Source: Escherichia coli (GTDB lineage Bacteria > Pseudomonadota > Gammaproteobacteria > Enterobacterales > Enterobacteriaceae). From it: a stretch of DNA of 64,000 nucleotides. Of the stretch, positions 42,001 to 45,000 are shown piece by piece (within the stretch, counting starts at the first letter, position 1; every line of letters starts with the position of its first letter). The position numbers were made by a program. The stretch is taken from assembly GCF_024298765.1 (NCBI RefSeq), contig NZ_CP101210.1; one strand, written 5' to 3'.

Positions 42001-45000
42001 CCAGATCGTCGATATGAAAATCCAGCAGGCTCTTGTCGAGCTTGACCACGTCCTCGTCTGATTTCGCCAGACAGGAAAGCAGAACGTGAATCGCTGCTGT
42101 CACGCGCTCATCGGGTGAGGCATCAGCCAGCGTTTCGCTGTTTTGCCATAAATCGATTTCCTGAATGGAAGAGACCGGGGTTAAATTAATTTTATCGAAC
42201 AGGGACTGATAAACGCCGCCGGACTCAGTGGTGGTGAGTGTTGCAGTTTCAGAGGTGGCATGTTCTTGTTGTACAGACATCAGCATTTCCTTTTCAGTGA
42301 TCCTTTCTTCTCCGGTTTAACCTGAATACGCGTTCGGGTTAAACGTTCTCCTGCGGCGCAATTTTCGCCAGTTCATCACGCAGTTCTGAACTGAGCGTCG
42401 GGTCTTTCAGGATATTTTCCAGTTCACGGCGAAACGTTGCGTTATCCAGCAGATTGGATTTCAGGTCACGTAGTAAATTGCGCATAGCGAGTAATACACG
42501 AAGTTGCGGAATATTTTTTGCTACCTGTTCGGGTTCAAAATCCTTCAGGCTTTTAAATTCAAGCGCGATATTTTGTTCATTACCGTTTCCGTTTAGCGTA
42601 TCTTCTACTGTTAAATTAACCGCAGGCGAAAACTCAGCCATGACGCTGTTGAAGTTGTTTTTATTGATATCAACCTTGCCCCGTTCGGACAGCGGACGTT
42701 GCTCTTTTCCGTTACTGTAATCGCCTACGGCAAGAAGCTTGAGGGGGAGTTCAACTTTCTTTTTTGCATTGCCTGTATGCAGATCAAGCTTGATATTTAC
42801 ACGAGCGGCGGGAACTTCATTCTGGAAACTGTCGGCCATATCCTTTTCCTCATCATCCACTTTTTCTGATGGTTATTGACATAATTATATTCAGGGGATT
42901 ATCGGATGATTTAAATAAAAAGCAATGATGAGGAAAATATACAAATAAATAATGTATTTTTCAGGGGAATAGATACAGTTGTATCATTTTAGATATTGCT
43001 TGGCCTCTTGATTATTTTTCGGAAGAGGGCGGCATTATCTGGTGAGAGAATTTGGCATGAAACTTAAAATAATAACAGGATAAGCTTCACAAATTTGCAC
43101 TTTTAAGAAATTGGGTAGTATGAGAGTCTATTAAGATATTCATTAAACTTATTGTCCGGGCTTTCACAAAAAATTATTAATTTTTCTACTAATTAAAAAG
43201 TTGTGTGCTTTTTGTACAATGATTATATAAGCGTAGCACCCTGTTGTGATATTGAAATGTTAACATAACCAAAATAAATTGATTTATAGAATATATAAAA
43301 TTCATTAATGGGGTATATGTTTAATATATAAATAAGATGGATGGCTTTGATGGAGGGATATTAACGGTTTACTCATTGTCTCAGGCTTCACTGAAACGGG
43401 TAAGGAAGCGTAAAAACGAAAAAACCGCAAGCCAATAGTAGCTTTGCGGTTTGTCAGCATTCTAATAAATTGGTTGCGGGGGCCGGATTTGAACCGACGA
43501 CCTTCGGGTTATGAGCCCGACGAGCTACCAGGCTGCTCCACCCCGCGTCACCGTACTGCTTTACTTCATCAAATTTTGATTGGTTGCGGGGGCCGGATTT
43601 GAACCGACGACCTTCGGGTTATGAGCCCGACGAGCTACCAGGCTGCTCCACCCCGCGTCACCGTACTGCTTTACTTCATCAAATTTTGATTGGTTGCGGG
43701 GGCCGGATTTGAACCGACGACCTTCGGGTTATGAGCCCGACGAGCTACCAGGCTGCTCCACCCCGCGTCACCGTACTGCTTTACTTCATCAAATTTTGAT
43801 TGGTTGCGGGGGCCGGATTTGAACCGACGACCTTCGGGTTATGAGCCCGACGAGCTACCAGGCTGCTCCACCCCGCGTCCGTGGATGCGCACTATACTCT
43901 GCTCGCGTTTTCATGCAACCTTTTTTTTACCCCGATCACGGATTTGGCATGATTTTGAACAAAAACAAATCACTAAAGCCTATTTTTTGTGCAAAATTTG
44001 CGTCAGGGAGAGGCTGCTCATTTCATTAAACGCGGTGGTTTGTTATCTTCGTTGCGCCTTATTTTTTAACCTGAAGAAGAGAACAATGAAAGGACGTTGG
44101 GTAAAGTACCTTCTTATGGGCACGGTTGTGGCAATGCTTGCCGCCTGCTCTTCCAAACCAACCGATCGCGGACAGCAATATAAAGACGGGAAATTTACCC
44201 AGCCTTTCTCTCTGGTGAACCAGCCAGATGCCGTTGGCGCGCCGATTAATGCCGGTGATTTTGCCGAGCAAATTAACCATATCCGTAATTCGTCACCGCG
44301 TCTGTATGGCAACCAGAGTAATGTTTATAACGCGGTGCAAGAGTGGCTGCGCGCAGGCGGTGATACCCGCAATATGCGCCAGTTCGGCATTGATGCCTGG
44401 CAGATGGAAGGTGTCGACAACTATGGTAACGTGCAGTTTACAGGCTATTACACGCCGGTAATTCAGGCGCGCCATACCCGTCAGGGCGAGTTCCAGTATC
44501 CGATTTATCGTATGCCGCCAAAACGTGGTCGTCTGCCGTCTCGTGCGGAGATCTACGCAGGAGCGCTGAGTGATAAATATATTCTCGCTTACAGTAACTC
44601 CCTGATGGATAACTTCATTATGGATGTGCAGGGTAGCGGGTATATCGACTTTGGTGATGGCAGTCCGCTTAACTTTTTCAGCTATGCAGGGAAAAACGGT
44701 CATGCCTATCGCAGCATTGGTAAGGTGTTGATCGACCGTGGCGAAGTGAAAAAAGAAGATATGTCGATGCAGGCGATTCGTCACTGGGGCGAAACACACA
44801 GTGAAGCGGAGGTTCGCGAGCTGCTGGAACAGAACCCGTCTTTCGTCTTCTTTAAACCGCAATCTTTTGCACCGGTGAAAGGGGCAAGTGCGGTGCCGCT
44901 GGTTGGCCGTGCTTCTGTTGCCTCCGATCGTTCAATTATTCCGCCAGGTACTACCTTACTGGCAGAAGTGCCGCTGCTGGATAATAACGGCAAATTTAAC

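Follow-up and report, generated by a model that had tools for sequence, protein, structure and literature searches.

We analyzed a stretch of Escherichia coli DNA of 64,000 nt (assembly GCF_024298765.1, contig NZ_CP101210.1), referred to here as the window, and all coordinates are given in its own numbering (Table 1). ARAGORN detected four tRNA-Met(CAT) genes in the window (anticodon cat in 4/4), and the Rfam tRNA model scored 61.4 bits for each of them. Tandem Repeats Finder described 43471–43877 as an array with a period of 110, 3.7 copies, 100% matches, 0 indels, and a score of 822. By script comparison, the 77-nt genes are identical in 4/4 cases and the 33-nt spacers in 3/3 cases. A search of the window with a 25-nt probe covering the gene's 3' terminus gave matches at these four sites only (chance expectation 0). 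The earlier note, made from the sequence alone, had described four tandem tRNA-fMet genes with identical genes and spacers and a 110-bp period at these positions, and these results bear this description out. The earlier note gave no strand for the array; ARAGORN places all four genes on the minus strand, so that the promoter-proximal copy is at 43877 and the last copy, beside the island described below, at 43471.

Table 1 Features of the array and its surroundings in the window.
Feature	Coordinates	Strand	Basis or content
Five-gene sugar operon (module 1 of island)	10997..16282	+	NCBIfam; same genes annotated in CFT073
Type VI secretion cluster (module 2 of island)	16581..42860	-	NCBIfam, Pfam; annotation of EC31, FY10, CFT073
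32.7-kb island, amiC stop codon to 3' end of last tRNA gene	10798..43467		blastn vs MG1655
Candidate intrinsic terminator	43412..43452	-	Hairpin AACCGCAA...UUGCGGUU, then UUUUUUCGUUUUU; 3' of last gene
tRNA-fMet copy 4 (last, metV position, adjoins island)	43471..43547	-	ARAGORN, Rfam, script identity
Stretch with three type c spacers	43548..43800	-	43548-43580, 43658-43690, 43768-43800
tRNA-fMet copy 3	43581..43657	-	ARAGORN, Rfam, script identity
tRNA-fMet copy 2	43691..43767	-	ARAGORN, Rfam, script identity
tRNA-fMet copy 1 (promoter-proximal, metZ position)	43801..43877	-	ARAGORN, Rfam; identical to K-12 metZ/W/V
Probable operon promoter	43891..43918	-	TTGCAT, 16 nt, TATAGT, then GC-rich discriminator; read from sequence
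mltA, divergent core-genome neighbour upstream of array	44086..45183	+	Annotation of EC31 and K-12; ORF list

The gene in the window (as RNA, CGCGGGGUGGAGCAGCCUGGUAGCUCGUCGGGCUCAUAACCCGAAGGUCGUCGGUUCAAAUCCGGCCCCCGCAACCA) is 100% identical to K-12 metZ, metW, and metV, which are annotated there as 'tRNA-initiator Met(CAU)'. All four copies have the CAU anticodon of an initiator (ARAGORN) and carry the C1xA72 mismatch, with a C at the start, A72 before the ACCA, and base 1 unpaired in the fold. They also carry the anticodon-stem pairs G29-G31:C39-C41 (the sequence reads ...UCGGGCUCAUAACCCGA...), and three consecutive G:C pairs in this stem are a described feature of initiator tRNA (PMC3017606). 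The D stem GAGC/GCUC provides A11:U24, as seen in both the sequence and the fold, and position 46 is a G as in tRNAfMet1, in contrast to the A46 of K-12 metY. Given the complete identity to K-12 metZ/W/V, formylation by Fmt and use in the ribosomal P site would be expected for the tRNA encoded in the window.

The genomic setting is that of the metZWV operon, with the divergent mltA on one side, amiC on the other, and a single upstream promoter (synteny with MG1655 and CFT073). The probable promoter, which we identified by eye, sits 13 nt upstream of the mature 5' end of the first gene and matches K-12 apart from a single A/G difference within the promoter spacer; the -10 region of K-12 metZWV has been mapped genetically (PMC3017606). 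At the other end, inspection by eye together with folding revealed a candidate terminator, a hairpin with a U-run behind it (centroid of the RNA fold -15.6 kcal/mol, z = -2.1). Simple scanners for consensus promoters and terminators missed both the metZWV promoter and this downstream hairpin. Because the four genes lie between one upstream promoter and a downstream hairpin, they should be co-transcribed and processed to identical tRNAfMet1 molecules, and we predict a single transcription unit covering all four.

Comparison with K-12 MG1655 showed the same 77-nt gene, 110-bp period, position divergent from mltA, promoter region, and G46. Three differences were found. MG1655 has three genes (metZ, metW, metV), as the earlier note had said and as its annotation states, and the window has four. 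The two K-12 spacers differ from each other (types a and b, see below), whereas all spacers in the window are of type c. Finally, K-12 has its own terminator in the 70 bp downstream of the array, a segment that is not found in the window (blastn vs MG1655); the candidate terminator of the window is a different hairpin and sits in island-side DNA. Very probably, the array is the metZWV operon with one additional 110-bp unit, that is, one 77-nt gene plus one 33-nt spacer.

The array adjoins a large island. Homology to K-12 stops at 43468, 2–3 nt past the CCA of the last gene, and resumes at 10797, which is the amiC stop codon, so 32.7 kb of DNA stand in place of 70 bp of K-12. This DNA has a GC content of 31–44% or ~60% compared with ~51% in the flanks, an atypical composition, and its presence is variable, with the island-side flank shared by 1,333/5,426 genomes (about a quarter). 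The first module encodes a LicT-like antiterminator, a MalX-like PTS IIBC, a PatB C-S lyase, a KpsF-like isomerase, and a 2-hydroxyacid dehydrogenase. The second encodes a type VI secretion system (T6SS), including tssB, C, K, and L, an OmpA-family gene, hcp, tssH, vgrG, and cargo genes, followed by tssM, A, F, G, J, E, and a VasL-like gene; in the window, both tssH and tssK carry frameshifts. The same order (T6SS beside the tRNA genes, then the sugar operon and amiC) is found in CFT073 at 3222091–3256330, next to three tRNA genes. On this basis the island matches the published PAI-CFT073-metV (PMC2660368, PMC2907695), also named ETSS2; a T6SS island downstream of metV has been described in both CFT073 and E. 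coli W (PMC2660368, PMC2907695, PMC3032704). The window and PAI-CFT073-metV share the insertion between metV and amiC and the order of the modules, but their cargo differs (Tle3/Tli3/PAAR in CFT073; an Amidase_2 protein and a 470-aa PAAR-domain protein between tssF and tssA in the window), and the frameshifts in tssH and tssK are a further difference of the window.

The earlier note regarded the array as the integration site of the island. An integrase-mediated, tRNA-targeting island is expected to have an edge where a tRNA gene ends (3' side), and the position, 2–3 nt past the CCA, supports the array as the island boundary. No integrase was found in 20 large island ORFs at 10997–37001 (NCBIfam; four also vs Pfam), and 37059–42860 contains only T6SS genes beside the tRNA genes and no integrase according to the annotations of EC31, FY10, and CFT073. 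With regard to att sites, the 25-nt probe of the tRNA 3' end matched the four genes only in the window when up to 3 mismatches were allowed, and no repeat of the tRNA 3' end (~10 nt or longer) was seen at the distal island end (10600–11100). By position, the array is therefore the boundary of the island, but these searches gave no sign of an integrase-mediated mechanism.

To place the copy number in the species, we searched 5,426 complete RefSeq E. coli genomes by megablast with array-only queries of 2, 3, 4, and 5 units. Each E-value cut-off was set halfway between the E-value to be expected for n units and that for n-1, such that only alignments exceeding n-1 units pass. A separate spread listing of genomes joins overlapping pieces, which confounds a ranking by coverage; the census was therefore based on the E-value-threshold searches, and the listing gives examples only. 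Three copies were found in ~91% of genomes (Table 2), and the RefSeq annotation at the matches was concordant (tRNA-Met x4 or x5).

Table 2 Number of metZWV units in 5,426 complete E. coli genomes.
Units	Genomes with at least this number	Genomes with exactly this number	Share of genomes
6	0 (single placement for each five-unit match)		
5	26	26	0.48%
4	66	40	0.74%
3	4,999	4,933	90.9%
2	5,194	195	3.6%
1 or fewer, or divergent array		232	4.3%

Four copies are present in the commensal reference HS, O55:H7 DEC5A, G3/10, and XL10-Gold (a K-12 derivative), among others. Further four-copy arrays were found in AHB7, FDAARGOS_1297, and MFDS1022581, and five-copy arrays in ST95-32 and the MRSN346595 clade. 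Examples of low copy number from the spread listing are FY10 and strain 1444 (two copies) and AVS0947 and ABW_A33 (one copy). The earlier note had called four copies unusual, and at least four units in 66/5,426 genomes agrees with this. It had added that the state would not be unusual if reference strains carried it; a few do (HS, DEC5A, G3/10), and the rarity nevertheless holds. Four copies are thus a rare (~1%) but recurrent allele that is already documented in public genomes. No identical four-unit array was found in the 5,426 complete genomes, where the best match was 99.8%.

The spacers served as markers for how such arrays expand. Spacer a (RNA sense, ATTAAAATTTGATGAAGTAAAGCAGTACGGTGA) is the first spacer in K-12 and most strains, and spacer b reads ATCAAATTTGATGAAGTAAAAGCAGTACGGTGA. 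Type c (ATCAAAATTTGATGAAGTAAAGCAGTACGGTGA in RNA sense) is type a with a single T->C difference (T3->C), type d is type c with G->A, and type e is a 34-nt variant. Table 3 shows the patterns in individual genomes.

Table 3 Spacer patterns of public metZWV arrays (T, tRNA gene; T*, gene with C65->T).
Genome	Copies	Pattern
MG1655	3	a-b
HS	4	T-a-T*-b-T*-b-T
DEC5A, G3/10	4	a-b-b
AHB7	4	a-c-c
MFDS1022581	4	a-a-c
FDAARGOS_1297	4	a-a-d
ST95-32	5	a-d-a-d
MRSN346595	5	a-e-a-e

In HS, the gene marked by C65T was duplicated along with its own spacer. Each four-copy pattern is what a single exchange would be expected to yield if the arrays had paired with a one-unit offset, be it in the first or in the second register, and the five-copy arrays read as exact duplications of a two-unit block. 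Expansion by whole 110-bp units at the same locus is what the window shares with the public four- and five-copy arrays. The differences are that public expanded arrays are a-b-b, a-c-c, a-a-c, a-a-d, a-a-a, a-d-a-d, or a-e-a-e and that of the window is c-c-c; that the public five-copy arrays involve a two-unit step; and that none of the public arrays is 100% identical to that of the window. The a-e-a-e five-unit array is common to ~23 genomes, which indicates that an expanded state can be inherited. Expanded arrays occur in three downstream contexts, namely with amiC directly downstream, with the sugar operon only, and with the sugar operon plus T6SS. Their occurrence across all three argues that such events recur and do so independently of the island.

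Close relatives of the window provide the most direct view of a recent change. EC31 (avian) has three copies, exactly one 110-bp unit fewer than the window; over ~40 kb, the two otherwise differ at 2 SNPs and 2 single-base indels and through an IS2 in the tssC of EC31. FY10 (avian) has two copies, two units fewer, and across 30 kb it is otherwise set apart from the window by 1 SNP plus 2 single-base indels. The next relative, strain 104, served as an outgroup and has three copies with spacers a-c. Strain 104 agrees with the window at 3/3 SNP sites and at a poly-A tract, which makes the EC31 and FY10 changes private to each. In the window itself, tssK is frameshifted by a private 1-bp deletion, and the poly-A run length varies among the three near-clonal assemblies (A7, A8, and A9). 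The window, EC31, and FY10 all have type c spacers only, compared with a-c in the outgroup; in the three-unit search, perfect matches to a T-c-T-c-T query came only from EC31 and from the c-c portion of the AHB7 array. Three copies were found in 29/29 of the next-best relatives. Judged from these differences, the window, EC31, and FY10 form a star-like micro-clone with 4, 3, and 2 units.

Tandem repeats gain and lose units through unequal sister-chromatid exchange or replication slippage. In the case of the window, a recent event within the clone most likely brought two array copies together with an offset of one unit, either by unequal sister-chromatid recombination or by slipped-strand replication, and the product would be an exact tandem duplication of one 110-bp unit. 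Unit loss would follow from the same process in the reverse direction. The earlier note proposed unequal crossing-over within the array. Exact 110-bp differences between near-clones and the marker duplications seen elsewhere speak for it, but the sequence does not separate crossing-over from slippage (exchange between sister chromatids that depends on RecA, and replication slippage that does not), so that the wider reading, out-of-register homologous exchange or replication slippage, is the well-supported one, with repeated and independent events. Since the c-c-c spacers of the window are identical, they do not reveal which unit was duplicated or where in the array the exchange took place.

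Could the fourth unit be an artefact? In a perfect 110-bp repeat, an assembler may arrive at the wrong size, and the true number of units would then be three, or some other number. The array is 100% periodic and short reads cannot resolve repeats of this kind; the closest genomes carry 3 and 2 units; the different homopolymer lengths in the three near-clonal assemblies could hint at assembly noise; and the window has its private frameshift in tssK. Nonetheless, at 407 bp the array is short enough for any long read or 2x250 read pair to cover it, and assemblers usually collapse repeats and do not expand them. Agreement of 91% of the 5,426 assemblies on three units suggests that the locus is not generally mis-assembled, four-unit arrays occur in well-finished genomes (e.g., HS), and expanded arrays are inherited within clades, as with the five-unit array of ~23 genomes. 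We therefore consider an assembly error unlikely. A by-product of island integration, by site-specific insertion at a tRNA gene, is a far weaker candidate, even though the island edge lies 2–3 nt past the CCA of the last gene and the literature knows the element as the metV island. The same island is accompanied by three units in CFT073, EC31, strain 104, and 29 close relatives, and by two in FY10, whereas four units occur in the island-free genomes HS, DEC5A, G3/10, and XL10-Gold. Moreover, the additional unit consists of a full gene plus an internal-type spacer and not of a partial 3' att copy, and the island searches returned neither an integrase nor an att repeat. Island carriers with two or three units, together with island-free genomes with four, effectively refute this origin, which we regard as extremely improbable; the change in copy number is independent of the island.

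A further alternative concerns selection on gene dosage. A subclone may have lost a unit together with its a spacer (resulting in a two-copy array as in FY10), and selection may then have re-expanded the array to three and four units. Levels of tRNAfMet in E. coli follow gene copy number, and low initiator tRNA leads to cold sensitivity and lost initiation fidelity (PMC3017606). The abundance of initiator tRNA influences growth rate and how faithfully start sites are selected (PMC3017606; Samhita 2014 as cited in PMC9981150), and how copy number affects fitness depends on the richness of the medium; according to the summary of Samhita 2014 in PMC9981150, losing initiator copies is harmful in rich medium and beneficial in poor medium. 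With spacer c alone in all three members of the clone and a-c in the outgroup, a deletion followed by re-duplication would be compatible with the data. The data do not require it, however. Spacers a and c differ by one T->C, and a point mutation or gene conversion plus one loss and one gain needs an equal number of events; the star-like phylogeny does not give the order of these events; and the retention of three units in 91% of genomes suggests stabilising selection and not directional selection. Contraction and re-expansion under selection is consequently a compatible but rather unlikely account, and we retain ordinary gain of one unit by out-of-register exchange or slippage as the preferred reading.

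The fourth copy should raise the dosage of initiator-tRNA genes by one (from 4 to 5 if a separate metY is present, as in K-12). It is also conceivable, although quite doubtful, that the array acts as a fast and reversible dosage switch, a contingency-like locus for a core component of translation. If so, the homogenised spacers would provide 187 nt of unbroken identity in the shifted register, as opposed to blocks of 79 and 107 nt, units would be gained and lost frequently, and sister strains a few SNPs apart would carry 2, 3, or 4 copies, among which selection on translation-initiation capacity (rich vs. poor niches) would choose. Otherwise, this is a routine copy-number polymorphism in a well-studied operon adjoining a well-known island, and it leaves the current view unchanged: a four-copy array is already a known kind, reflecting ordinary repeat instability at a well-known operon. 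As near-isogenic strains, the carriers of 2, 3, and 4 copies would, however, be a convenient natural test of dosage tuning in the wild, and this clonal series would also reveal the pace of turnover in tandem tRNA arrays. In Pseudomonas fluorescens SBW25, large tandem duplications have been described as altering tRNA dosage (PMC10954465). The two cases are alike in that a homology-driven change of copy number in unit register would alter the dosage of tRNA genes, but the SBW25 duplications span many kilobases and the window involves a 110-bp unit inside a pre-existing array.

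Initiator tRNA arrays that are marked or expanded were also found in other genomes (see table). In HS, a C65 to T change is present in two adjacent genes, leaving the T stem with a G49:U65 wobble pair, and the altered gene has been duplicated along with its spacer. The arrays with five copies, a-d-a-d by spacer type in ST95-32 and a-e-a-e in MRSN346595, each consist of a block of two units that was duplicated exactly, not of two one-unit gains in succession. The a-e-a-e array is common to ~23 clinical genomes. In XL10-Gold, which derives from K-12, the spacers of the four-copy array read a-a-a (a-b in K-12 MG1655), an arrangement that a single unequal exchange cannot generate. 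Explaining it takes a further event or gene conversion, an ancestral array of another type, or an artefact of polishing.

The metV island next to the array is modular, since in MRSN346595 and MFDS1022581 the T6SS cluster is absent and the sugar operon (KpsF-like gene, dehydrogenase) directly adjoins the tRNA array. In MRSN346595, the first ~60 nt past the tRNA, including the terminator stems, are similar to the T6SS-bearing form of the island.

Within the GC-rich T6SS cluster of the window, two stretches of cargo genes are AT-rich. Between tssF and tssA, where CFT073 has no gene, the window encodes a 470-aa protein with a PAAR motif at its N-terminus as well as a 141-aa ORF that had no family match. 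Downstream of vgrG, the window has an Amidase_2 protein, whereas CFT073 has Tle3/Tli3. These differences probably represent swapped effector-immunity modules. At its distal end, the cluster also encodes a weak TssA-like protein in addition to the canonical TssA.

Two T6SS genes are split in the window. tssH (ClpV) forms two overlapping ORFs in the window and is annotated as frameshifted in the near-clonal EC31 and FY10 and in the next relative, strain 104; the CFT073 copy is intact. The T6SS of this lineage is probably non-functional. tssK is split into two ORFs by a 1-base deletion (CCAGAAC to CCAAAC) in the window alone: the missing G is present in EC31 and FY10, and the gene is annotated as intact in these two genomes, strain 104 and CFT073. 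Either the sequence is in error at this base, or the deletion is an inactivating mutation private to the window. Within the T6SS cargo region, the length of a poly-A tract that lies in AT-rich intergenic DNA varies among the clonal genomes: it is A7 in FY10, A8 in the window and strain 104, and A9 in EC31, which reflects either genuine slippage or homopolymer error.

Coordinates of the features discussed (window positions unless a genome is named)
Feature	Coordinates	Strand	Remark
Second TssA-like gene (weak)	16581-17957	minus	'VasL domain-containing' in CFT073 annotation
AT-rich cargo genes	21919-23749; 30515-31168	minus	
Canonical tssA	23749-25386		
Poly-A tract	30423-30430		
tssH	33693-36318	minus	
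tssK	39386-40722	minus	deletion at 40015
mltA 3' repeat	44959-45236; 45310-45587		direct
XL10-Gold array	L003 1501-1907		
HS C65 to T genes	L005 1611-1797		
ST95-32 array	L006 1501-2017		
MRSN346595 array	L007 1501-2019		
MRSN346595 sugar operon	L007 1-1500		
MFDS1022581 sugar operon	L014 1-100		

The window also contains a 278-bp repeat (97.5% identity between copies) of the mltA 3' end (3D domain), with the second copy just downstream of mltA, whereas K-12 has one copy of this segment. In the relatives, the mltA-derived repeat is annotated as a partial '3D domain-containing protein'.
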